This document shows positions 39,889 through 53,285 of a stretch of DNA of 64,000 nt, one piece after another (position 1 is the first letter of the stretch; every line of letters begins with the position of its first letter). The translations under genes were made by a program, and so were the position numbers. Origin of the DNA: Bacillota bacterium (GTDB lineage: Bacteria; Bacillota; Clostridia; Christensenellales; CAMQZB01); the NCBI GenBank assembly GCA_044426045.1, contig JAWXUX010000007.1, positions 26,318-90,317 on the forward strand, in the 5' to 3' direction. The notes below the pieces were generated by a model, which ran no database searches, was not told where the DNA came from, and saw only the letters and a program-made list of their open reading frames with translations.

Positions 39889-40776
39889 TTAAAAAGATAT
39901 CTTAAAATACTCCATAGCACGCTTGAAATTATCTTGAGCTGAAAGGCATGTGTCCCCGAGATAGCCTTTTTCGCTTTCCCACTCTTTGAGACCACGATAA
40001 TAAAATAACTTGTGCGTTTCATCTATAACAAACGGCACGATATTATTTTTTAGGCACTGTTTCAATATTATCAGCCTACCGACCCTGCCGTTGCCATCTT
40101 GAAAAGGGTGAATACATTCAAATTTATAGTGGAAATCGAGGATATCATCTAGTTCAATTTGTTGTTTTTCGTTATATTCACAAATAAGTTTCTTAAGCTC
40201 TTTTGCGACATCTTCAGGACTTGTGGTGTTGCTTCCACCAATCTGGTTTGGCAATTTTTTATATTCGCCGACATTAAACCAACTTTTTTTGCTGTCGCTT
40301 GTGCCATTTTTCAGCACCATATGCAATTCTTTGATGAACTTTTCACTGAGACGCGCAGATGCATTTTCTATAACCATATCAATACATCTGAAATGGTTTG
40401 CCGTTTCTATGATATCATCCACATTGTGAACTTTATCAGACATGCCGATTGTGTTTGTTTCAAAAATATAGCGAGTTTCATCGTGCGTCAGCTTGCTTCC
40501 CTCGATATGGTTCGAATTATACGTCAAATCAATCTGAAGTTTATGGTAAATACCCCCGCTGGTTTTGCCATTCATTTCCTCACTGAGCCTATAAAGCAAA
40601 TTATCACTCTGATTTTTCGCCGTGTTTTTTCGCAATGGCTTAACTGCACTTTCAGGAATATTCCAAGTCTTGCCAGTCAAAAATGCCCCTGCTATTTGCC
40701 CACTAGCACAATAATTTCGCACACTTCGATCCGAAACTCCCCATTTCAAAGCCACTTCCTTTACAGATAAATACAT
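39889..40776 (-). CDS. fic: Fic family protein with N-terminal HTH
   Basis: HPFQDGNGRVGR active-site motif and SNHIEG, an [ST]xxxE[GN] auto-inhibition motif. GGAGGTGG RBS. Confidence 0.9.
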   Translation of the reverse strand: MYLSVKEVALKWGVSDRSVRNYCASGQIAGAFLTGKTWNIPESAVKPLRKNTAKNQSDNLLYRLSEEMNGKTSGGIYHKLQIDLTYNSNHIEGSKLTHDETRYIFETNTIGMSDKVHNVDDIIETANHFRCIDMVIENASARLSEKFIKELHMVLKNGTSDSKKSWFNVGEYKKLPNQIGGSNTTSPEDVAKELKKLICEYNEKQQIELDDILDFHYKFECIHPFQDGNGRVGRLIILKQCLKNNIVPFVIDETHKLFYYRGLKEWESEKGYLGDTCLSAQDNFKRAMEYFKISF

Positions 40777-40798: not shown

Positions 40799-40827
40799 AT
40801 TATACTAAACTATCGGCAAAAAGTCAA
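40799..40827 (-). promoter_or_regulatory. sigma-70-type promoter of fic
   Basis: Minus strand TTGACT (40822-40827), 17-nt spacer, TATAAT (40799-40804). Confidence 0.6.
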
Positions 40828-40863: not shown

Positions 40864-40895
40864 AACGGCACTGCTTACACCCTCCCCAAAAATCC

Positions 40896-40937
40896 ACACA
40901 AAAAAGCCCACTTTAGTGATGAACTAAAAGTGGGCTT
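40896..40937 (-). terminator. rho-independent terminator after the DarT-like gene
   Basis: Stem AAGCCCACTTTTAG/CTAAAGTGGGCTT followed on the minus strand by TTTTTTGTGTG. Confidence 0.7.
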
Positions 40938-41048
40938 ATTTATGTGAGTTAGACACCAAAAGTACATTTTGGCGAGTGTGTATGCAACCTAAAGTGCATT
41001 TTTATAGATGTTTGCAACTAGAAGTACATACTATTTATATTGAAACTT

Positions 41049-42077
41049 CTATATAACATTTGTTTCATCTATTGGCTTCTCTATACATGCCAATATATTG
41101 TGTTCCACATACAAACTTATCCTCAGTATTTTTGTTTTTTCATAATGCGGTATTTTATTTATTCCTATAGGTCTTGTATCCTGATAGTTCATCATGCACT
41201 TAAGTTTTCGTTCAAAAAGAATTTCGTTTTTACCATTTAGCCATTGAAAAACAAACTCTAGCTCTATTTGTGACAATTCATCTAATTCTCGTTTTTCCAT
41301 TTGGTGTTTATCGTATTTACATTTATCCAAAGTATCCGTAAAATTAAAAGTAACACTATTTTCATTAAATATAATATCTTCAACAAATAAACCGTTCTTC
41401 TCAAACATGTCACTTCTGCATACTTTTACTTTATCTTTATATTTATAAAATAATTTTTCATTTTTAGCCTTCAAAAGAGTCATAAATGTAGATTTTTCCA
41501 CGTGATTTCTGCACAATATAACATTTAAACTGTCATCGATATTATACTCATTAGGACATAAAATTTCTGCATGCCTATATTTTCTATCCTCATAATCTGC
41601 AAAGTTATTACCATAAATCTTTTTAAAATTTAATTTAGCAAAATCATCTTCACCACTATACAACTCTGCTCCATGTCCAGCCTGACTGAATTCAGAAAAA
41701 GCAACACCGTTTGTTTTTAAAATTTTTTCCATATCAAAAAGAAAAAATATTGGTACAGTGACATTTGCATTTCTATCACCGTCATACCTCAAATCAGGAT
41801 GCTTATACCCCTCATTATAATATTGAGTTGGAGTCATCGGTCTAAAATAAAATCTAGCACTAGACAAAGCTTCACTCTCCGTCATGTTAATTACTTGCAT
41901 ACTAGCGTTATCATTTTTCATCAACTGCTTATCCGATACTTGTAATCTACTATATATATATCCAGTTGACAAAATATTCACTGCATTTGTGATATCTGTA
42001 TAATGATATGCAAATTTAGGCCACCATGCAACATCTGCTATTTCACAGTTATTTTTTATTATTTCTGAATATGTCAT
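41049..42077 (-). CDS. darT: DarT-like (DUF4433) ADP-ribosyltransferase with a ~130-aa C-terminal extension
   Basis: FAYHYTDITNAVNILSTGYIYSR, ARFYFRPMTP, FSEFSQAG and YRHAEILCPNEYNIDDSLNVILCRN match my recollection of DarT motifs. The start is coupled to the macro gene (GAGGGG RBS inside its end). Confidence 0.65.
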   Translation of the reverse strand: MTYSEIIKNNCEIADVAWWPKFAYHYTDITNAVNILSTGYIYSRLQVSDKQLMKNDNASMQVINMTESEALSSARFYFRPMTPTQYYNEGYKHPDLRYDGDRNANVTVPIFFLFDMEKILKTNGVAFSEFSQAGHGAELYSGEDDFAKLNFKKIYGNNFADYEDRKYRHAEILCPNEYNIDDSLNVILCRNHVEKSTFMTLLKAKNEKLFYKYKDKVKVCRSDMFEKNGLFVEDIIFNENSVTFNFTDTLDKCKYDKHQMEKRELDELSQIELEFVFQWLNGKNEILFERKLKCMMNYQDTRPIGINKIPHYEKTKILRISLYVEHNILACIEKPIDETNVI

Positions 42078-42081
42078 TAAA

Positions 42082-42933
42082 CTACCCCTCTAATCCGAAG
42101 GCTCTTCCGCGGCCTTCATTAAGCTGATAGCCATCAACAAATACACCTTGCTTATCCATAATACGGACTTTCGAAATATATCCTAGGTCATTTAGTAATT
42201 TACAAAAAATGCTTTTTATATTATTGCTTTCGCTTTTAAATATCAAATCATTTCTAACCTCATCCCATATTCCATACAATTCTTCAAAGGTTGTAATATA
42301 TTCTTCATTTCCACATTTAAAAATATAGTTTTCGCCATCTTTTTCAACAGTCCAATCATTTTCAAAAATATATGAAATCATTCTACATTGCTCTTCAACA
42401 TCGTCAAGAACACCTCTAAATGACATATTTTTTGCATCTTTTTTGAGCCAATCCATAGTTCCTTTTGGATTTTTGTGTTCAGGTTCGATATTCTCGCCAG
42501 GTCCTATATAGATATAAACATCTATAGGCAACGGCTTCAAATATTTTTCCATTATCGGACGCACATCATTCCAAGACAATTCCCCATTCCCGCATCCCAA
42601 TCTAGGAAACGCTATTGAAGTTATACTTTTTTCCGCATACGTACTAACGAATTTTCTTAGACCATCTTCTATATATTCAAGTTTTGACGGATTCCTCCAA
42701 TGCTCTTTAGTTGGAAATAGCAACACCCAATGATCAGGGAAATAGAACAACATAAGTTTTCCTGTTTTTAAAGCATGCTTTTCGCAAACTTTTTTATAGT
42801 CATCAAACATTCTAGGATATCTATTTTTGAATGTCAATGCAAGACCCTTTCCCATAACTCCAACTGTATTGACCGTATTAACAATAACTTGCGCCGGACT
42901 ATCAAATATATTACCTTCTACATATTCTAACAT
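42082..42933 (-). CDS. darG: macrodomain protein (DarG-like antitoxin candidate)
   Basis: VIVNTVNTVGVMGKGLA and SIAFPRLGCGNGEL macro motifs, plus a ~130-aa C-terminal domain. Confidence 0.7.
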   Translation of the reverse strand: MLEYVEGNIFDSPAQVIVNTVNTVGVMGKGLALTFKNRYPRMFDDYKKVCEKHALKTGKLMLFYFPDHWVLLFPTKEHWRNPSKLEYIEDGLRKFVSTYAEKSITSIAFPRLGCGNGELSWNDVRPIMEKYLKPLPIDVYIYIGPGENIEPEHKNPKGTMDWLKKDAKNMSFRGVLDDVEEQCRMISYIFENDWTVEKDGENYIFKCGNEEYITTFEELYGIWDEVRNDLIFKSESNNIKSIFCKLLNDLGYISKVRIMDKQGVFVDGYQLNEGRGRAFGLEG

Positions 42934-42941
42934 TTAACACC

Positions 42942-43160
42942 TCATTTCAACTTAATCTTTTCACCATTAGGCAACACAAAATCGCATTCAATTTTGCAAC
43001 CTGTCACCATAGCAATTGTATCTAAATTATCCAAACTGAATGAACCCCGTTTAATTTTTTGCGAAAATGCTTGCGGAGTTACATTCATTCTTTTTGCAAT
43101 CTCCGCAGCAGTCAAGTCCGTTTTAGCACATAAAGTTTTTATCTGTTCATCTATTCTCAT
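42942..43160 (-). CDS. XRE-family HTH protein
   Basis: DLTAAEIAKRMNVTPQAFSQKIKRG. ATG at 43160 preceded by GAGGT. Stop lies 8 nt before the macro gene. Confidence 0.7.
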   Translation of the reverse strand: MRIDEQIKTLCAKTDLTAAEIAKRMNVTPQAFSQKIKRGSFSLDNLDTIAMVTGCKIECDFVLPNGEKIKLK

Positions 43161-43253
43161 ACTATACCTCACATTTATTATAAACTATTTCGTTTAAAAT
43201 GTCAATATATACGTTGATTTTATATTACTTAATATATTGTATATTTTTATACT

Positions 43254-43865
43254 TTACACCATTTTTATAAACTCGCTCGCAATATCCACATCGTCAATTC
43301 TTATTGTTATTTCTTCATCGGTGGCAAAGCCCATGAAATTTATATTGCCGTACCATGTGATTTTACAATCTATCACTGCGAAGTTTTGATGTACTTTTTC
43401 TTTTTGAATCACTTTAATTCCAAAGTTTTGAAGGTGCTCTATATTTCGCGATACGGCGTCTTTCATTTCTGGTTTGAAAGATTCTGTTTGTGTTGTTATT
43501 ATTGTCACGACAGTGCCGTTTAGCATTGCTATGGCAAATTCTTTTGCTATATTTGTTATTCTATCTTTTTTCAAAGATGAGGCGAACACTACAATTTCAC
43601 AATTTGCTTTTCTTATATCTTCATAGAATGCTTTTGAGTAATTTTCTGTGTTATAAATAATATTTGGATTGTTTTCTACCCCTTCGCACCCTAATATTTT
43701 ATAGCCTATTTCCGCATAACTTTTAACCCTTTTGTGATACATTCTTTCAAGCACTGGCACGTGGATATCGGCGTAGTCGTATATCACTACATCCTTTTTG
43801 TTATCTAGCAAGCGATGAAGTCTGCCAGCATATTGAGCAACTTTGCCCTTCCATGCTATTGGCAT
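43254..43865 (-). CDS. helicase motif VI plus HKD-like domain fragment (C-terminal 203 aa)
   Basis: Same frame as the upstream fragment. Its first Met lies 13 codons after the TAA. Confidence 0.55.
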   Translation of the reverse strand: MPIAWKGKVAQYAGRLHRLLDNKKDVVIYDYADIHVPVLERMYHKRVKSYAEIGYKILGCEGVENNPNIIYNTENYSKAFYEDIRKANCEIVVFASSLKKDRITNIAKEFAIAMLNGTVVTIITTQTESFKPEMKDAVSRNIEHLQNFGIKVIQKEKVHQNFAVIDCKITWYGNINFMGFATDEEITIRIDDVDIASEFIKMV

Positions 43866-43904
43866 TGCAAGAAAAAGGGTATCTAATCTCGGGAAATCAA
43901 ATCC

Positions 43905-46187
43905 TTAACCCACGTATTTACCCGTTGCGATTATAACTAGGCTGTCGCAATCTTTATATTCTGCGAGTTTTTCACTTGCCAATCGCTTTTCTTTAGCAGA
44001 CATTGTGCCAACCAATTTGACTATGTTCTCGCACTTATCTTTCAAAAGCTCGCTCAATAGTTCCACATGACCTACTCGCTCGGTCAAAACAAGTGGCGTT
44101 CTTCCATTTCCTAGTGCTGAAACAACATCACCAACTATCATTTTATTTCTCTCGCTATTTTTTGCAATGTCATTATATATTTGAGAGATTTGCTTTTCGT
44201 CTTTTATTGCCGTCACTTTCAATTTTGTAAATCTAGGGGAAATATAATGCTCAAATGGACGATTGCCCGCCTCCGTTTTGGCATCAACTCGGTATCTTAT
44301 ATCCCCACACTGCAAGAAAATTATTGGATGGTGCCCGTCTTGTCTTGTTGGAGTTGCAGTTAGCCCATAAACATACCTCGCACTTGCACACTTCAAAATC
44401 TTTTCAAAATTCACCGCCGACACATGATGGCATTCGTCAACTATTATTTGCCCATAGTTTCGCACAAGTTCCTTGACCTCGCCACCCTCAAATAGCGATT
44501 GCATAATAGCCACATCAACTTTGCCATTCAATGTGTTTTTGCCACCGCCAAGAATGCCAACTGGGCTTAACTGTTTTTTGCGTCCACGCTTTTTAGGCTG
44601 ATCTTCGACATCAATTTCTGGTTGTTGCAAAATCAAAAATTCCTCAAGTGATTTTTGCCACTGAGAAAGCAAGCTTTGAGTGTGAACTAGCACAAGGGTG
44701 TTTGTTTTATGTTTTGCTATTATATTAGCAGAAACCACCGTTTTTCCAAAAGCAGTAGTTGCAGAAAGCACCCCCGTGTCATGCGCAAGCAAAGCGTTCA
44801 CTGCCAAAGATTGTTTTTCTCGCAATTTGCCTTTAAATTCTGCTTGAATTTCCTTTCCAAAGTTCCTTTCGTCTACAATCTTATAACTCACATCTGCATT
44901 TTCCAGCATGCGAACAAGCGATTCTTTCCCTCCTCTTGGGATTGAAATATAATCACCATCATCTTCTGCAAGCGTTATTATCCGCGGTTTATTATATATC
45001 GGCAGTCGCATAGCTTGCGATTTATAGAAATCAGGATTTCTGAATGAAACCAACCTTTTAATCTGCGTTTGTACTTTTTGCGATAAACCAGCTTTACCTA
45101 TATAAATCGTTCCAGCCTCCACTATTTCCACTTCACTGCAAGTGAAATCTTCTTTTGAGATTACGGTTTTTCTAGCATTTTGCCACGGCTTTTTGTTCTC
45201 ACTTTCTTCATCTGTTGTGACTAGCTCACCTAAATCAGAATTAACGCATAGAACTGCCACTTTTCCCTCTACTTCTACAAGTGTTATCTTCTTAGCTTCA
45301 GAAAGATACGCCCATTGGTCTTTTATTGGAGCGAAATCATCATCCACAAACACACTGTTACCATTCTTTCTAGCAAGTCCTTGCAACGGCAGTGCAATAA
45401 GATTGCCAAAACCACCGTGTGGCATATTGTCTTGGTTTGGGAAAAGTCTATCGTATGAATCAAATTTGATATCGCTTCGGCTGCTCATTGCAAACGTCAA
45501 AAGACCGCTCCCCAACTTTCTTGCCAAATAGCTAGGAACGCACTCTGCAAAAAATATCCAAACATGTGCGCCGTTTCCCGAGCGAGAACGCTCAATATAT
45601 ACTGGAATTTCATGTTCTTGTGCAACTCCCTTAAAAGCTAAAACATCTTTTTCGTATTCTGCATCGTCAAAGTCCAATGCTAAAAAATGGCAAGCTTCAT
45701 CTTTTAGCATTGGATAAATTCCCAACACATCTTTCCCTTGCGAATCCTTGCCACGTAAATGATTTTCTATGACTTCATCACTTATAGATTTCAATTTCCT
45801 ATGCGGACAAGTTGCACATTTATATTTCTTTTTGTCACACAAATAACTGTTCCATTCATTTAAACAAACGGGCTGATATCCACTCTTTCCTGTTTTGGCA
45901 CTGTACCACCGCCGAGCAAATACATCATCCCGCCCCTTGAAAAGCGAGCGAAACAACGTAATTTTGTCTTCCTTTGAACTTTGCATATTAACTTGCAGTA
46001 TTTTATTTTGAGTGTTTCTATCTTCTGCTAGAACTGGCAGGCTATCTTCATTTACAGCCAATAAACTTTCTATATCTACATTTAAATCACGCAGTCTATC
46101 ACGAAAAACACCATTCTCAAACCGCAATCTTTCGTTTTCTAAAAGCAATTTGTCGTATAAAGTTTTTAATTCGTCGTAGTTATTCAT
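43905..46187 (-). CDS. AEP-helicase fragment (N-terminal 760 aa)
   Basis: Tracked ORF 43905..46208. Ends at the premature TAA between helicase motifs V and VI. Confidence 0.6.
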   Translation of the reverse strand: MNNYDELKTLYDKLLLENERLRFENGVFRDRLRDLNVDIESLLAVNEDSLPVLAEDRNTQNKILQVNMQSSKEDKITLFRSLFKGRDDVFARRWYSAKTGKSGYQPVCLNEWNSYLCDKKKYKCATCPHRKLKSISDEVIENHLRGKDSQGKDVLGIYPMLKDEACHFLALDFDDAEYEKDVLAFKGVAQEHEIPVYIERSRSGNGAHVWIFFAECVPSYLARKLGSGLLTFAMSSRSDIKFDSYDRLFPNQDNMPHGGFGNLIALPLQGLARKNGNSVFVDDDFAPIKDQWAYLSEAKKITLVEVEGKVAVLCVNSDLGELVTTDEESENKKPWQNARKTVISKEDFTCSEVEIVEAGTIYIGKAGLSQKVQTQIKRLVSFRNPDFYKSQAMRLPIYNKPRIITLAEDDGDYISIPRGGKESLVRMLENADVSYKIVDERNFGKEIQAEFKGKLREKQSLAVNALLAHDTGVLSATTAFGKTVVSANIIAKHKTNTLVLVHTQSLLSQWQKSLEEFLILQQPEIDVEDQPKKRGRKKQLSPVGILGGGKNTLNGKVDVAIMQSLFEGGEVKELVRNYGQIIVDECHHVSAVNFEKILKCASARYVYGLTATPTRQDGHHPIIFLQCGDIRYRVDAKTEAGNRPFEHYISPRFTKLKVTAIKDEKQISQIYNDIAKNSERNKMIVGDVVSALGNGRTPLVLTERVGHVELLSELLKDKCENIVKLVGTMSAKEKRLASEKLAEYKDCDSLVIIATGKYVG

Positions 46188-46194
46188 TAATTCA

Positions 46195-47157
46195 TTAAGC
46201 TTCTTCAATTAAATCAAATATTGAATTTTGCACATTTGCTCTAGTTTCAGGTGTATTTCTTACATAATTCAAGTCAAAATTCAAATCTATTGGCAGGGCT
46301 CCTTGTGCGATAAGTTGTTTATTTCCTTTATACTCGCTATTATCCCAGCAAAGTGTGTGCCCCCAATTATTTCTCAAATTCTCAGTTGCACCCGCCCATG
46401 TACCACCTTTGTTATAGTCAGCTTTCACCACAACAGTTCCCAAAGCCTGGGCATATATATATTTATTTCTTTGCATTGCCATTCCAACGTTAAATCCCGC
46501 ACTAGGACTGCTTGCGGAAATCAACACTAGCTTGCCATCACGTATCGCTTTCGCTGTTTTGCCATTTTTAATTTTCCTAGCCATAGAATCCGACAAAAAT
46601 TCAATCGCAACACCACCGATATTGATAGCTTCACTTGTTGCAACAGTATCCACTCCTTTAGCTCCGCCAGAAGCAATATAAAATTGTGATTCAACTGCTT
46701 TTTTAACCATTTCTTCAGTAAATTTCACATCTGCTCCTGAGACATTTCTTGAGCCGACATATCCAATAGACTCATTGTTTAACAAGTCGATATCTCCACA
46801 ATAATAAAATAGCGGTGGACAGCTTTGCTTAAGCTTTCTTTTTAAATTTTTTGGATACTCATCATCTGCTCTTGTCACTATGTTTATACCCATGCCATTC
46901 AGCTTTTCAATCTCAAACGCTAAACTGCCACCTCTATCTAGCAATCGTTTTATTCTATCTGCTTTACCACTATCAAAGCACAGAATATCATTAAAATCTG
47001 CTATACCAAAATCCAGCAAATCTTGTGGCGATTTTTTATGGACAATCAGTTGACTGGAAATTTCTGCCCACTCTTTTGGGAGCAATGGACTTATTCCTTC
47101 ACCAACACCAATATGGCTGCACAAACAGAATATTACTTCGCTAATTTTATTTTTCAT
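46195..47157 (-). CDS. DprA/Smf-like (SLOG Rossmann) protein
   Basis: GYVGSRNVSGADV...ASGGAKGVDTVATSEAI...QRNKYIYA. Start overlaps the RecQ stop (TAATG). Confidence 0.8.
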   Translation of the reverse strand: MKNKISEVIFCLCSHIGVGEGISPLLPKEWAEISSQLIVHKKSPQDLLDFGIADFNDILCFDSGKADRIKRLLDRGGSLAFEIEKLNGMGINIVTRADDEYPKNLKRKLKQSCPPLFYYCGDIDLLNNESIGYVGSRNVSGADVKFTEEMVKKAVESQFYIASGGAKGVDTVATSEAINIGGVAIEFLSDSMARKIKNGKTAKAIRDGKLVLISASSPSAGFNVGMAMQRNKYIYAQALGTVVVKADYNKGGTWAGATENLRNNWGHTLCWDNSEYKGNKQLIAQGALPIDLNFDLNYVRNTPETRANVQNSIFDLIEEA

Positions 47158-49214
47158 TATAACTCCTTACTACTGCTATCTGCAAGTGCAAAAGGGAAAA
47201 CACATTGTACACCTTTTTCCATTAATTTATATCCACACACGGTCAAAGTCCATTTTGAATCTATAACATCATCAACCAATATGATTTTTTCAGGAAAATT
47301 TTCTACATTTTTCACTGAAAATGATTTTTGGGCGTTATAGCACTGAAATGAACTATTCTCCATTTCTTTTTGCACTTTTGCCTCACTTTTATCAATCAAT
47401 GATACAAATTCTAATTTTAACGATTGAGCTAATCTCTTTGCAAAATCTTCAACTATGTCACTTCTCAATGAAGGAACGCACGTGATGTGGGTGTATCCCG
47501 CACCTCTTAACTTTTCGGATAGCACTTTTGCACTCTTTCCCACCAATTCATCACTAAATCTTTTTTCTATATATTTACCCTTCTTAACCAATTCCCCATA
47601 ACCTGGGTCTCCATATTTACTCAAACAAATTCCAATTTCATTTAAAGGTTTTATTTTGCTAGCCTTCGGAGTTATAGATGTTGTTGCCCACATCTTTCTC
47701 GGCTCTATAGGAATGGTTAAGCTATTCAAATATTCGAGTGCTCCACTTCTCTCTTCATTTGACAGTTCGGTATTAAAGATATCATGTCCCAAACAGTTTG
47801 CACATTTGCCACAATTTTTTCCATTGTCATCATCTAAGCAATTAACAACAAATTTACTATAGCATGAATTGATTTCTACAAGATCTTTAATTTGCTCTTT
47901 TTCTCTTCTTCTTATGGCTTTTATCTCTTCATAATGTTTTTCATTATATTCATACTTATTCGTCGTTATATAATAATAGTTTTTTTCTTTATAGATAGCA
48001 CGTTCATTTTCTAGAAAATTTAAAGTCTTTTCAATATTGCTTTTGCGTTTATTGACATAACTTGATATTTGCCCTAGTCTTATTCCATCATGCCCCCCAA
48101 TCACACCATAAACTTGTTCACATTCGTCCCTTGATGGAAATGCGGTTTCTATAAAATATTCAGTTATATTGTCATCCTCTTCTCCCGAAAGCAAAATTGC
48201 ATAAGCCTTATCTATATTTCTTCCCGCTCTGCCAATTTGTTGATAGTATGTAACGATATTTGCAGGTTTTTGAAAATGAATAACGAAACCTATATCACCC
48301 TTATCATACCCCATACCAAGCTTGATTGTGGCAACGATAACCTTGATTTTATTTTTTGAAAACTTCTCAAGAGCAATCCTGTTTTGCTCTTCATTTTCAC
48401 TTCTTGAATAATAAGGCGCTGAACTTATTCCATTTTTATTCAAAAAGGAAGATAAATAATCACAATCTCTTTGCGTTAAACAATATATAATTCCCGTGCC
48501 TGGCAACTTGTTAATATTTTTCAAAATCCAAGCATATCTATCCGCCCTATCTTTCATCTTAACGACTTGAATAGCTAGTGATTCTCTTGTGAGTGGTCCT
48601 CTTGAAACAAATACATCTTCTCCAAGCTGAACTTTCAAATCTTCAACAACACGATCGTTTGCAGTTGCCGTAGTTGCAAGTATTGGTATATTTGATAGGG
48701 TGGACTTTATAACTTTATATAAATTACTATATTTCAATCTGAAATCGTGCCCCCAATCAGATATGCAGTGTGCTTCATCAATCACAAACAACCCAATTCT
48801 TATGCTGTGAATTGCTTCTTGCACTTCTTGCAAAAACAAAGTCTCTGGCGTTATAAGCAACAAATCAATTTCATCATCTTTTAAACTTTGGATTATTTCA
48901 CTCCGCCTTTCTGCAGTAGTCGAATTCAGCTGTTCGCACCTGAGCCCCAATTTATTAGCTGCTTGTATTTGATTTTCCATAAGAACTAACAATGGACTTA
49001 TGACAAATGTTGTGCCTTTACCTTGTTTTCTCAATAGTTTAGTGCAAACGAAATATACTAAACTCTTACCCCAACCTGTCTTTTGAACAACTAGCGTCCT
49101 CTTTTTTGTCATCGTTTCTTCAATCGCTTCATATTGACCATCGCGAAAATCGCTATTGCTACCATATAAAGTATGCAAAATTTCATAACTTTCATTTTTT
49201 AGCTCAGTGTTCAT
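47157..49214 (-). CDS. recQ: RecQ-family helicase fused to a C-terminal phosphoribosyltransferase (ComF-like) domain
   Basis: QKTGWGKSL, DEAHCISDWGHDFR, QQIGRAGR and the zinc motif CGKCANC. PRTase motif IILVDDVIDSKWT near the C-terminus. Confidence 0.85.
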   Translation of the reverse strand: MNTELKNESYEILHTLYGSNSDFRDGQYEAIEETMTKKRTLVVQKTGWGKSLVYFVCTKLLRKQGKGTTFVISPLLVLMENQIQAANKLGLRCEQLNSTTAERRSEIIQSLKDDEIDLLLITPETLFLQEVQEAIHSIRIGLFVIDEAHCISDWGHDFRLKYSNLYKVIKSTLSNIPILATTATANDRVVEDLKVQLGEDVFVSRGPLTRESLAIQVVKMKDRADRYAWILKNINKLPGTGIIYCLTQRDCDYLSSFLNKNGISSAPYYSRSENEEQNRIALEKFSKNKIKVIVATIKLGMGYDKGDIGFVIHFQKPANIVTYYQQIGRAGRNIDKAYAILLSGEEDDNITEYFIETAFPSRDECEQVYGVIGGHDGIRLGQISSYVNKRKSNIEKTLNFLENERAIYKEKNYYYITTNKYEYNEKHYEEIKAIRRREKEQIKDLVEINSCYSKFVVNCLDDDNGKNCGKCANCLGHDIFNTELSNEERSGALEYLNSLTIPIEPRKMWATTSITPKASKIKPLNEIGICLSKYGDPGYGELVKKGKYIEKRFSDELVGKSAKVLSEKLRGAGYTHITCVPSLRSDIVEDFAKRLAQSLKLEFVSLIDKSEAKVQKEMENSSFQCYNAQKSFSVKNVENFPEKIILVDDVIDSKWTLTVCGYKLMEKGVQCVFPFALADSSSKEL

Positions 49215-49353
49215 ATTTTATTCCCTTATTTGTTTTATATTTAGCAACTGCGTTATTAAAAATCTAATTCTCTCGTTATAATCCTGAAAAAAATCTGCCG
49301 ACCAGATATCTAGTGATTTCAATGCTTTTGTATTCCAGAATAAAGAACAACTT

Positions 49354-50349
49354 CTACTTTTTAGACGTTTCTATTTGCTTTTGCGTTTTTTTCAACGCAT
49401 CAATATATTCTTTTTCGACTGGAGAAAGCAACTCATCTTCTAGTTTCTTATATTTTTCATATTCTTGATCTGCTTTGATAATCGCCTGTTTATTGCTTAT
49501 GCTCCCACCACCAATCAACACACCTTGTCCGTATCTTTGTGCAAAATCATCAATTTCTACGACCCAATCTTTCATATACATTGGCTCTCTTCTCATTGCC
49601 CTTAGTTCTGCCAAATCAAAAAAAGCAGTCACCAAACGATTTAACACAGCAAGTTCATCTTCTTTTAAATAGTTCTTGGCTATTCTAGTTTCACTTTTTA
49701 TTGGTCTATCCCCTTTGAAAGTTGTTAAACCCATAAATGGCAACTCTGAATTGGCACGCTGATATATAACTTCCGATGCTGTGCTTTTATGTGTTGCATA
49801 ATGGAGTTTATTTTGCACAACCTTGAAAAACTCTACTGTTTCTTCTGCCTTTGGACTATAATCAACACTAGTTGCATATAAGTCCAAAACTTGCCTATAC
49901 AAAACTTTTTCGCTAGAACGAATATCTCTTATCCTTTCAAGCAGTTCTTTCCAATAACTTCCGCCACCAGCTTGTTTCAGTTTTTCATCATTTATAGTGA
50001 ATCCTTTTATTAAATATTCTCTTAAAATATTCATCGCCCATTTTCTAAACTCTGTGCCACGAAGGGACTTCACTCGATATCCTACTGAAATTATAACATC
50101 TAAATTGTATAATTTTACCCTATAACTCTTGCCGTCACTTGCAGTTGTCAAGGATTCCTTGACAACTGCAATCTCATCAAGTTCACCCTCTTTGAATGTA
50201 TTATTTATATGCAAACTTATATTTTGTTTGCTTGTTTGAAAAAGCTCTGTCATTTGCATTTGAGAAAGCCAAACTGTTTCGTCCTCCACTTGAACATCTA
50301 TTTTAGTTGAGCCATCTATTGATGTATAAATTATCATTTCGCTATTCAT
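49354..50349 (-). CDS. RhuM family (virulence-associated) protein
   Basis: VWLSQMQMTELFQTSKQNISLHI...YNLDVIISVGYRVKS..GTEFRKWA is typical of RhuM. Confidence 0.8.
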   Translation of the reverse strand: MNSEMIIYTSIDGSTKIDVQVEDETVWLSQMQMTELFQTSKQNISLHINNTFKEGELDEIAVVKESLTTASDGKSYRVKLYNLDVIISVGYRVKSLRGTEFRKWAMNILREYLIKGFTINDEKLKQAGGGSYWKELLERIRDIRSSEKVLYRQVLDLYATSVDYSPKAEETVEFFKVVQNKLHYATHKSTASEVIYQRANSELPFMGLTTFKGDRPIKSETRIAKNYLKEDELAVLNRLVTAFFDLAELRAMRREPMYMKDWVVEIDDFAQRYGQGVLIGGGSISNKQAIIKADQEYEKYKKLEDELLSPVEKEYIDALKKTQKQIETSKK

Positions 50350-50467
50350 GCCACCCTCCCCACATAAGTTACTTTTGTGAATTATTCATATTACATTAAA
50401 TTTTATCACGATATATTAAATTTGTCAATGTTTGCGGGCAATTAACCGCTAGTTCATTGCATTAAAG

Positions 50468-51991
50468 CTATATCCCCCTCACCACCGATTCTCCGCCCTT
50501 AAATTCTAGTTTTAGGGTGGTTTTGTTTATGACTATTATTCTTTGCAGCAGGCTTTTCATTAGTGCTGTGTCGAACGATTGGAGCAGGGTGGCTTGTTTG
50601 GATATTTCTAGGATTTTGGCTTTTCTTGATTCGGTTAGGATTTTTTCTGCGTTTAGGGTTTTTATTTTGGCTTGTGCGGATTCTTTTGCCCTCAGTTCTT
50701 TGGATAGGATTTCTATTTGATTTTGATAGACATCATCAGTTATTTCGCTGTTTTTTCTTGCGGTATGCAAAGCTATGGCTTGTTGTTGCAAGGTTATTAT
50801 TTCTTCTTCTATTGTGTCTATTTCAGCTGTTTTATCGGCGTTTATTGCTGCCTCTATTGTATTTGTTATTTGATTTGCATTCAACATATTTTCTGCCAAC
50901 TCTTTCAGTGCAGATAGGTAGGCTTTTTCAACGTCGGATTCTTTCAGCGTTATACTCTCGCATTTGCCATCGTGGTTTGCTATTCTGTGAGTGCAGACCC
51001 ATGTTGGGATTTCTTTGCCGTTTGGGTTCTTTCTTATCAGCCTTCTATATCTTGACATACAGTCTCCACAGATTATCATGCCACTGAATGGGTATTTGCT
51101 GACGTATTTTCCTTCGCCTGTTTTGGTTGCGTAGTCAGCTTTTTTTCTTATTTTTATCTCCTCCTGAACTAGGTCGAAAAATTCTTTTTCTATTATTGCA
51201 GGGTGACTGTTTTCCACATAGTACATTGGCATTTTGCCGTCGTTCTTTATACGTTTAGGACTCAGCACATCAGGTTTATAGGTTTTGCCTAGAATTGCAT
51301 CACCTTTATATTTGATGTTTTCAAGCATACGCATAATTGTTGAGCGTTGCCAATTTGTTCCGTTTCGCTTTGTTGGGATATCATCACGTTTGAGACCATC
51401 GACTATTTGGTTCACAGAATATCCACATAGGTATTCCCTGAATATCCTTTTGACAATATCCCCCTCTTCTTCCACAATTTCTAGCGTGTTATCTTCTGTC
51501 ATTTTATAACCCAACACGCCTTTTCCAACAACCACATGACCTTTAGAAAATTTTTCTTCATACGCCCATTTTTGGTTTAGACTATTGGTGCTGACATCGT
51601 TTTCCGCAATGCTCGCAGCTATTATAAGGTAGATTTCACTGCTGGTTTGAAACGTGGATATGTGTTCTTTATCAAAGATAACTTCCACGTTCATATCTCG
51701 CAGTTCTCTCACTGTTTGCAAAAGCTCTGCCGTGTTTCTTCCGAACCTTTGCACTGATTTTGTGTATATCACATCAATCCCACCAGCTTTGCAATCTTCT
51801 ATCATTTTCACGAACTGCAGCCTTTTTTCTTGCGTTCTGCCACTGATTCCTTTATCTGCATATATTCCGCAAAGCTCCACTTCTTCGCTTCTTTCAAGAT
51901 GCTCTTGCCAATAGCATTTCTGAAACTCAAAGCTGTGCGATCCGCCATCACTTTTGCCAGATACTCTGATATACGCCACTGCTTTTTTCAT
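50468..51991 (-). CDS. large serine recombinase
   Basis: N-terminal resolvase domain AVAYIRVSG...YADKGISG...SVQRFGRN, a recombinase domain, a Cys zinc ribbon (CGDC...C..C) and a C-terminal coiled coil. Confidence 0.9.
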   Translation of the reverse strand: MKKAVAYIRVSGKSDGGSHSFEFQKCYWQEHLERSEEVELCGIYADKGISGRTQEKRLQFVKMIEDCKAGGIDVIYTKSVQRFGRNTAELLQTVRELRDMNVEVIFDKEHISTFQTSSEIYLIIAASIAENDVSTNSLNQKWAYEEKFSKGHVVVGKGVLGYKMTEDNTLEIVEEEGDIVKRIFREYLCGYSVNQIVDGLKRDDIPTKRNGTNWQRSTIMRMLENIKYKGDAILGKTYKPDVLSPKRIKNDGKMPMYYVENSHPAIIEKEFFDLVQEEIKIRKKADYATKTGEGKYVSKYPFSGMIICGDCMSRYRRLIRKNPNGKEIPTWVCTHRIANHDGKCESITLKESDVEKAYLSALKELAENMLNANQITNTIEAAINADKTAEIDTIEEEIITLQQQAIALHTARKNSEITDDVYQNQIEILSKELRAKESAQAKIKTLNAEKILTESRKAKILEISKQATLLQSFDTALMKSLLQRIIVINKTTLKLEFKGGESVVRGI

Positions 51992-52225
51992 AACTTTACC
52001 TCCTTATATTTTTACAAACACACAATACCGCAAAGAACTTTTTAAGTCTAGTAAATAAGTTCTTCACGAGCATTTATTTTGCTCCTCTGCCAATTTTTCT
52101 ATCTTTCGTTTTTCCTTGAACGTTATAAGCCCCATCAGCCATAATTTATTTGCAAGTGCCTTTGTATATATTATATTGAAATTAATTTTATCTATCATCG
52201 TTTTCCCTTTGCCCACTTTTGGGCA

Positions 52226-52258
52226 TGAAAAAAGCATCATCCGAGGATAATGCTTTTT
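52226..52258 (-). terminator. rho-independent terminator (bidirectional)
   Basis: Stem AAAGCATCATCC/GGATAATGCTTT flanked by an A-run and a T-run. Lies after the Bro-N gene. Confidence 0.6.
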
Positions 52259-52325
52259 GGTTTGTTTATTTTACTTTCAAACCGTGACAAATTGTCACGA
52301 ACTGAATTATACTACCTTTTCGTTA

Positions 52326-53174
52326 CTAATCATTATCTTCATCGAGTTGATGCTGAATTTTCACTTCTAAAGCTGGTTTATCTTTTGCATTTAACGACGA
52401 AACAACCGACATCCCCAACTCTTCTTCAATGTTATTACGAGCGTTCTTAGCAACTTTTCCGCCACGTCCAGCCACATTTTTATTCTCATCAAAAGTCTTT
52501 GGCTTAACTTGTTTTGATATCGCAGTCGTTGTTACTTCCGCAAGCTGTGCAAGTGTGAGTTCAATATCCGTCATATTATCACGAAGATTTTCTTTTTTCA
52601 AATCCTTGAGCTGTTTGTATTCTGACGTTGTCATTCCACTCCACGCTTTTAACATTTCGTTTGTGAGTATTGCATAATCTCTTTGGTCTTCAACTCCCCT
52701 TGTTTGCCATTCGTCAGTAAGTTTCTTTCTCATCTCAATGGTTTGAAGTCTTTGATTTATCCAACCTTCCGTATATCCCTTTTTGCGATAATAATCTGCA
52801 CCACGAAGAATAGCTTTCTCTGGGTCTGCCATTTCATCAAGCCTTTGACTGCCAACTTCCGCAAGCCACATTTTGAACGGTTCTGCGTTCTTTGATGGAA
52901 TAGATTGGATAAGGCGGAGTATTCCTTTGGTATCAAGCACGTCGGTTTTGTATTTTTTGCCGTCAGATGCCTCTAATTTCAGTTGCACGATTTCTTCGTG
53001 CAACTGACTGCCTTCTGCTTTTAGCTTCCTTTTTAAGTCACTCCAATAATTTCTTGGAATATTACTCTCACTTAAAACTCCACATACATCAACAACAGAA
53101 AAGTACCATTCTTCCTTTTCTGCATCCCATTGCGACCTTATTTTTCTTTCGTGAAATAATTGTATCTTTCCCAT
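52326..53174 (-). CDS. Bro-N / DinD-like DNA-binding (antirepressor-type) protein
   Basis: IRSQWDAEKEEWYFSVVDVCGVLSES...PFKMWLAEVG. ATG at 53174 is preceded by AAGAGG. Confidence 0.7.
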   Translation of the reverse strand: MGKIQLFHERKIRSQWDAEKEEWYFSVVDVCGVLSESNIPRNYWSDLKRKLKAEGSQLHEEIVQLKLEASDGKKYKTDVLDTKGILRLIQSIPSKNAEPFKMWLAEVGSQRLDEMADPEKAILRGADYYRKKGYTEGWINQRLQTIEMRKKLTDEWQTRGVEDQRDYAILTNEMLKAWSGMTTSEYKQLKDLKKENLRDNMTDIELTLAQLAEVTTTAISKQVKPKTFDENKNVAGRGGKVAKNARNNIEEELGMSVVSSLNAKDKPALEVKIQHQLDEDND

Positions 53175-53285
53175 AATTAACCTCTTTTTTAATACCGTAA
53201 GTATAGCACAATTAATCGCTTTTGTAAAGATGAAAAGCAAAATACAACAGCCGTTTTCAGCGTTGCCTTGATATTCTATTACTTT

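Follow-up and report, generated by a model that had tools for sequence, protein, structure and literature searches.

A 64,000-nucleotide (nt) stretch of a Bacillota contig (JAWXUX010000007.1, positions 26,318 to 90,317; hereafter the window) carries, on its minus strand, a tightly coupled three-gene operon that encodes a 72-amino-acid (aa) helix-turn-helix (HTH) protein, a 283-aa macrodomain protein and a 342-aa protein of the DarT family. This operon is a genuine DarTG-like module, that is, DarTG in the broad sense, with the DarT-family protein as the candidate toxin and the macrodomain protein as the candidate antitoxin. Its features, in window coordinates, are as follows.

43160..42942, minus strand: HTH protein, 72 aa, Cro/C1-type (Pfam HTH_26), a probable autorepressor
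42933..42082, minus strand: antitoxin candidate, 283 aa, with a DarG-class macrodomain
42077..41049, minus strand: toxin candidate, 342 aa, DarT-family
41403..42077, minus strand: DarT-type ADP-ribosyltransferase (ART) core of the toxin candidate, residues 1-225, with H25, Y77 and E171 present
41049..41402, minus strand: C-terminal extension of the toxin candidate, residues 226-342 and stop codon, an Ig-like beta-sandwich
43177..43205, minus strand: sigma-70 promoter TTGACA-17 nt-TATAAT, matching the consensus at 12 of 12 positions
43181..43196, minus strand: putative operator, the inverted repeat TAAAC-GAAATA-GTTTA, located between the −35 box and the −10 box and merging into the latter with its GTTTA arm
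43213..43217, minus strand: putative third half-site TCAAC (consensus TAAAC/TAAA), 21 nt upstream of the proximal TAAAC
40890..40947, minus strand: intrinsic terminator, a bulged GC-rich hairpin followed by U6, identified by RNA folding

The first-pass annotation of this DNA had described the three open reading frames (ORFs), the gaps of 8 nt (HTH/macro) and 4 nt (macro/toxin) between them and a ribosome-binding site (RBS) for the last gene inside the macro gene, and all of these were found so: the toxin-gene RBS, GAGGGG, sits within the final codons of the macro gene, and the macro-gene RBS, GAGGTG, overlaps the stop codon of the HTH gene. The length of the HTH protein is counted from the ATG; the mechanical ORF list begins four codons upstream, at a GTG inside the RBS. 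The motifs listed in that annotation, GVMGKGLA and FPRLGCGNGEL in the macro protein and HYTD..N..IL..G, RFYFRPMTP, FSE and RHAEILCP...ILCRN in the DarT-like protein, are likewise all present. The strong terminator that it placed after the operon is real by folding (hairpin at about 40947..40894, minus strand; −28.5 kcal/mol, z = −4.94, with 0 of 200 shuffles folding as well) and lies some 100 nt past the toxin stop codon, not immediately after it; a consensus terminator scan of the locus gave no call, because the stem is bulged. The interval from the toxin stop codon to the terminator (40947-41029) contains three direct repeats of about 21 nt (approximately TGYWTGCAAC-N-AAGTRCAT), spaced by 30-32 nt, which could be a protein-binding array or the remnant of an element end.

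The 342-aa protein (hereafter long DarT) matches the Pfam DarT family (PF14487) over residues 24-206 with 84.5 bits (cut-off 22.5) and the PADLOC DarT model with E = 2.9e-8. No solved DarT was retrieved by sequence when phmmer with the protein itself and a hidden Markov model of 30 relatives were run against the PDB, and the link to the solved structures was accordingly made only through structure prediction followed by Foldseek, and through hhalign. For the AlphaFold (AF2) model (predicted local distance difference test score, pLDDT, 86; whole-chain predicted template modelling score 0.86), the top six Foldseek matches in the PDB are DarT2 structures from Thermus sp. 2.9, Mycobacterium tuberculosis and Thermosipho, with target-normalised template modelling (TM) scores of 0.62-0.74 and identities of 14-17 %. 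Comparison by hhalign with a DarT2 profile, for which the reference sequences were taken from canonical plasmid loci and the PDB alignment, gave a probability of 90 % (E = 2e-6), and in this alignment H25, FYF 76-78 and E171 of long DarT correspond to the conserved H13, FYF and catalytic E160 of Thermus DarT2. The DUF4433/DarT-like reading of the N-terminal part at first pass, for which the lack of an ART match or of a catalytic Glu context had been named as counter-evidence, is borne out by the Pfam and Foldseek matches and by the retained E171. Among 126 full-length members of the superfamily, H25, R44, R75, Y77, T82-P83-T84, E89-G90, P109, E171 and R190 are invariant or nearly so, and the catalytic Glu and the NAD-binding His and Tyr are unchanged in 124-126 of the 126; given the invariance of H25, Y77 and E171 across such divergent proteins, long DarT is clearly under selection as an ART enzyme. 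A search of BFVD with the toxin model also returned weak DarT-like fold matches to uncharacterised giant-virus proteins (Pithovirus, Klosneuvirus and Mimivirus), along with weak matches to betabaculovirus ORF32 and iridovirus 422L, which fit the earlier suggestion that the arthropod-virus ORF28 family is a relative of DarT (PMC9503650).

Past the DarT core, the toxin continues for about 117 aa, somewhat less than the approximately 130 aa estimated at first pass, into a folded extension whose existence had been anticipated correctly. In the AF2 model, residues 232-335 (pLDDT about 90) fold into an Ig-like beta-sandwich, the packing of which against the ART core is predicted with confidence, and the Foldseek matches to this region are generic beta-sandwiches only. 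Conservation across the superfamily drops to 0.1-0.2 past residue 250, so that the beta-sandwich is the fast-evolving part of the toxin; it may represent a sensor or specificity domain.

The 283-aa protein combines a DarG-class macrodomain (residues 1-146), a flexible linker, an alpha/beta C-terminal domain (residues 172-271) and a conserved tail, with the conserved motif GYQxNEGxGR, that is predicted to be disordered; the tail and the alpha/beta domain are specific to the clade. The protein scores 63.1 bits against Pfam Macro and 208.7 bits against the PADLOC DarG model, and it matches the DarG structure 5M31 with E = 2e-36, with K76, which is invariant in 32 relatives, corresponding to the catalytic Lys80 of Thermus aquaticus DarG. 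In the Foldseek comparison, the macrodomain is closest to those of the T. aquaticus and M. tuberculosis DarG proteins (target-normalised TM 0.83-0.84, identity 41-44 %), followed by TARG1, in line with the first-pass assignment to the DarG kind. The similarity to canonical DarG is confined to this domain: hhalign gives a probability of 100 % for residues 1-146 and nothing further, BLASTP alignments past residue 150 are low-identity extensions, and homology of the C-terminal domain to that of DarG was therefore rejected; in Foldseek searches with the whole protein, the macrodomain matches swamped any signal from the C-terminal domain.

The pairing of these two proteins is widespread. The exact protein is present in a Bacillota metagenome-assembled genome, its full-length relatives form at least 399 clusters at 90 % identity, and an exhaustive profile search recovered 1,326 representatives at 50 % identity (408 with E <= 1e-30), most of them 320-350 aa long. 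The 115 loci identified in GTDB species genomes come mostly from gut and rumen Clostridia, with other hosts including Akkermansia and other Verrucomicrobia, Bacteroidales, Succinatimonas, Sphaerochaetaceae, Phascolarctobacterium and Gastranaerophilales; the branch is very abundant and has its centre of distribution in commensals of the human and animal gut (Oscillospiraceae, Lachnospiraceae, Christensenellaceae, Akkermansia). At 79 of 80 species-level loci from several phyla, the gene directly upstream of, and co-oriented with, the toxin gene encodes a macro homologue, the sole exception being a locus cut by the end of its contig. The gene junctions are 4-nt gaps or overlaps. The macro-first order is also kept by the relatives on Rhizobium and Agrobacterium plasmids. 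The neighbouring genes, often including integrases, vary from locus to locus, which indicates that the cassette moves as a unit. The macro/long-DarT cassette has, in addition, crossed phylum boundaries inside gut communities.

The characterised DarTG systems differ in both target and antitoxin: DarTG1 combines a NADAR antitoxin with a guanine target, and DarTG2 a macro antitoxin with a thymine target (PMC11543638). In the canonical loci that were recovered here (Bacillus thuringiensis pCT281, Zymomonas and Burkholderia), the gene for a DarT of about 210 aa precedes that for a macro protein of about 340-360 aa, in agreement with the canonical order, darT then darG, and the short DarT given at first pass. 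The module resembles DarTG2 (T. aquaticus, M. tuberculosis, enteropathogenic Escherichia coli; PDB 7OMV, 7YK3, 5M31) in the DarT-fold ART with an H..Y..E active site, in the DarG/TARG1-class macrodomain with a catalytic Lys and in the coupled two-gene core found on mobile or defence islands. It departs from DarTG2, however, in several respects. The two genes stand in the opposite order; the toxin, at about 340 aa, has a C-terminal beta-sandwich and shares only the low identity given above; the antitoxin, at about 285 aa, ends in a C-terminal domain that is not homologous to that of DarG; an HTH regulator and a putative operator for it are usually present in addition; and both proteins fall under the NCBIfam equivalog cut-offs (NF048013, NF048014). 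DarTG1 (E. coli C7 DarT1-NADAR, PDB 8BAQ) is alike in combining a divergent DarT-family toxin with an antitoxin that removes ADP-ribose, and shows that DarT clades are able to switch base specificity, but its antitoxin is NADAR rather than a macrodomain (Pfam and NCBIfam searches yielded no NADAR, DUF1768, match to the partner protein here), and gene order and toxin length differ as well. DarHTG (Liu-DS3), another recent non-canonical variant with an extra component, contains a UvrD-like helicase and the ARH-type antitoxin DarG3 (PMC13069673), whereas the module here has an HTH protein and a macrodomain; there is no helicase within the operon, the adjacent TOTE helicase being a separate, non-conserved neighbour, and DarG3, as an ARH antitoxin, was rejected as a match. 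Thus, the module has what defines DarTG broadly, namely a DarT-family ART with its catalytic residues next to a hydrolase with a catalytic Lys, and belongs to none of DarTG2, DarTG1 and DarHTG. A DarT2 profile finds DarT1 with E = 0.034 and a long-DarT profile finds neither, so that the distance of the long-DarT clade from DarT2 is no smaller than that of DarT1. A published DarT tree of about 5,000 sequences does not make the macro-first long-DarT distinction (PMC11481870), and the literature searched yielded no account of an HTH-regulated class with macro-first order and a long DarT. The antitoxin-first order proposed at first pass, opposite to that of canonical DarTG2, is evident from the 79 loci, and the broader proposal of a variant DarTG is supported by the toxin, the macrodomain, the gene order, the HTH protein and the extension alike.

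The HTH protein matches Pfam HTH_26 with 23.3 bits (cut-off 22). Homologues with 52-79 % identity are encoded directly upstream of the macro gene at 57 of the approximately 73 testable loci (about 78 %); 16 loci with ample upstream sequence lack the gene, and 7 truncated loci were set aside. The added transcriptional regulator of the first-pass annotation is thus an accessory component, and its status as a universal one was rejected. The relatives keep the −35/−10 architecture of the window promoter, and their aligned upstream regions consist of TTGACA, about 3 nt and TAAAC-N6-7-GTTTA fused to the −10 box as GTTTATAAT, with an additional TAAA half-site 21 nt upstream (position-specific conservation of 0.70-0.91 at −37..−34 in an anchored alignment of 43 promoters). 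The pattern TTGA..xAAy-N5-8-RTTTA occurs at 43 of 51 HTH-containing loci and at 0 of 16 HTH-less ones, against a background of about 20 occurrences per 920 kb. Because the palindrome overlaps the −10 box and co-occurs only with the HTH gene, this distribution supports autorepression of the operon by the HTH protein through putative binding to TAAAC-N6-GTTTA. Pairs of macro and long-DarT genes that lack both the HTH gene and the operator were observed in Akkermansia and other Verrucomicrobia (loci L036, L044, L064, L068-L071, L073, L074 and L086) and in Phascolarctobacterium (L088 and L091); with both elements absent, these pairs must be regulated differently. Regulator, antitoxin and toxin genes in this order, with an operator overlapping the promoter, are also found in tripartite or separately regulated type II toxin-antitoxin (TA) operons such as paaR-paaA-parE; the layout is the same, but the toxin and antitoxin here are writer and eraser enzymes of ADP-ribose rather than a stoichiometric inhibitor pair.

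Based on the above considerations, the operon is probably a self-contained, horizontally mobile, HTH-autorepressed TA or anti-phage cassette that acts by reversible ADP-ribosylation and belongs to a distinct, uncharacterised DarTG-like clade. Under the proposed mechanism, the 342-aa protein would be an NAD+-dependent ART whose most likely target is a base in single-stranded nucleic acid, and the 283-aa protein would undo the modification by means of its DarG/TARG1-class macrodomain, with K76 as the catalytic residue, and would probably also restrain the toxin directly via the C-terminal domain and tail that are specific to the clade. The HTH protein would repress the promoter of its own operon at the palindrome that overlaps the −10 box, and the antitoxin-first order, with its tight or overlapping junctions, would favour an excess of antitoxin. 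The trigger could be a phage, or the loss of the element, that halts transcription or translation, or else a signal received through the hypervariable beta-sandwich of the toxin, and the freed toxin would then block replication. The context is supportive, since the cassette is part of a defence island (TOTE, Fic/PDC-S04, RhuM) beside a large serine recombinase and has integrases next to it in other genomes. Several observations weigh against this interpretation. The scores against the NCBIfam equivalogs are 23.3 bits for DarT (cut-off 150) and 203.6 bits for DarG (cut-off 250); the non-homology of the antitoxin C-terminal domain to the DarT-binding domain of DarG bears on direct neutralisation; active-site positions of DarT2 are altered (see below); 50,697 phage records contain no homologue of the module, which bears on the link to phage biology; and no experimental work on any member of the clade was found in the literature searched.

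The altered positions concern both chemistry and base recognition. In the profile alignment, Met78 of Thermus DarT2, the proposed stabiliser of the oxocarbenium ion, is replaced by the invariant T84, the thymine reader His119 lies opposite S131/Q132, and Arg51, implicated in proton abstraction, faces a gap beside position 60 and has no clear counterpart. Position 60 was rejected as the R51 equivalent since it varies (S/R/P/Q/T/E) across the superfamily, as do positions 130-136 of the ARTT loop, where position 131 is S/N/G and position 132 is L/Q. As judged from these alignments, the base-reading residues of DarT1 and DarT2 (PMC11543638) are not conserved in long DarT; the invariant R44, R75 or R190 could act as substitutes. 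From the changes at the R51, Met78 and His119 positions, it follows that the substrate and the chemistry of long DarT may differ from those of DarT2. A target other than thymine in single-stranded DNA, be it another base, RNA or protein, with the macrodomain removing the adduct, would account for these replacements and for a distance from DarT2 at least as large as that of DarT1, whose base specificity did change; TARG1-class macrodomains also act on protein ADP-ribose. Nevertheless, this alternative is rather unlikely, given that DarG macrodomains specific for thymine share 41-44 % identity with that of the antitoxin candidate, in which the catalytic Lys is retained, that the reversal of guanine ADP-ribosylation in DarTG1 is performed by NADAR and not by a macrodomain (PMC11543638) and that the best structural matches of the toxin are DarT2 enzymes. 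A further possibility, which is put forward tentatively, is that the macro-first long-DarT clade constitutes a third mechanistic class of DarTG, with a rewired active site that targets a different base, sequence or nucleic acid and with the beta-sandwich acting as a specificity or phage-sensing module that would co-evolve with the new C-terminal domain of the antitoxin.

A second alternative retains the same biochemistry but assigns to the cassette the addiction or stabilisation of an integrated mobile element by post-segregational killing, in place of phage defence. Such a role is compatible with the recurrence of the cassette at the edges of elements that bear integrases or recombinases, with a relative on an Agrobacterium Ti plasmid that adjoins Phd/VapC and with the antitoxin-first autoregulated layout known from classic type II TA systems. 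It is nonetheless unlikely, considering that the cassette in the window sits among the defence-type genes TOTE, Fic/PDC-S04 and RhuM and that both characterised DarTG subfamilies protect against phage (PMC11543638), although the two roles can coexist. Finally, the HTH protein could be a third functional partner, acting for example as adaptor, chaperone or second antitoxin, rather than a transcriptional autorepressor, as its gene is always translationally coupled to the macro gene, its sequence (52-79 % identity) is more conserved than that of the toxin and tripartite TA systems exist, but this is very improbable for a 72-aa protein that is essentially a Cro-like HTH alone, is dispensed with at about 22 % of the loci and strictly co-occurs with a palindrome overlapping the −10 box.

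The surroundings of the cassette in the window look like the defence cargo of an integrated element. The cassette stretch itself is lower in GC (about 34 %) and is flanked on one side by genes for a TOTE primase-helicase-PLD protein, a DprA-like protein, a DEAD helicase, RhuM and a large serine recombinase, and on the other side by a Fic/PDC-S04 gene. A functional tie to the neighbouring TOTE genes was rejected because the neighbours differ at every other locus. The TOTE gene (43254-46208, minus strand; AEP-TOTE primase, SF2 helicase and PLD nuclease) contains a single in-frame stop (43905-43907), which falls in helicase motif V ('...ATGKYVG*GFDFPRLDTLF...') and separates ORFs of 767 aa and 203 aa that share the frame; either the gene is a nonsense pseudogene, or the stop is an error of sequencing or permits read-through. 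Directly upstream of the TOTE gene (46195-53240, minus strand) are the DprA-like protein and a 685-aa DEAD/Helicase_C protein, and further out RhuM, the large serine recombinase (50468-51991) and a BRO-N protein. Immediately downstream of the operon, an HTH_17-Fic protein (39889-40776, minus strand) that matches the PADLOC candidate defence family PDC-S04 with 360 bits has its own near-consensus promoter (40827..40799). Taken together, the genes from the DprA-like protein to BRO-N suggest that everything between about 38 kb and 53 kb is cargo of an integrated mobile element.

Work on DarTG rests on DarTG1 and DarTG2, which differ in target base and antitoxin chemistry, and the locus described here represents a third, apparently unstudied branch, set apart by a different operon logic, a new antitoxin C-terminal domain, the variable toxin domain and the altered active-site residues. 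The proteins of this branch are labelled in RefSeq as 'DarT ssDNA thymidine ADP-ribosyltransferase family protein' and 'macro domain-containing protein', and pipelines that assign the former name may over-transfer the substrate. The branch makes it possible to test how base specificity is encoded in DarT, how DarT is restrained and released and how such a module is controlled transcriptionally via a defined putative operator.

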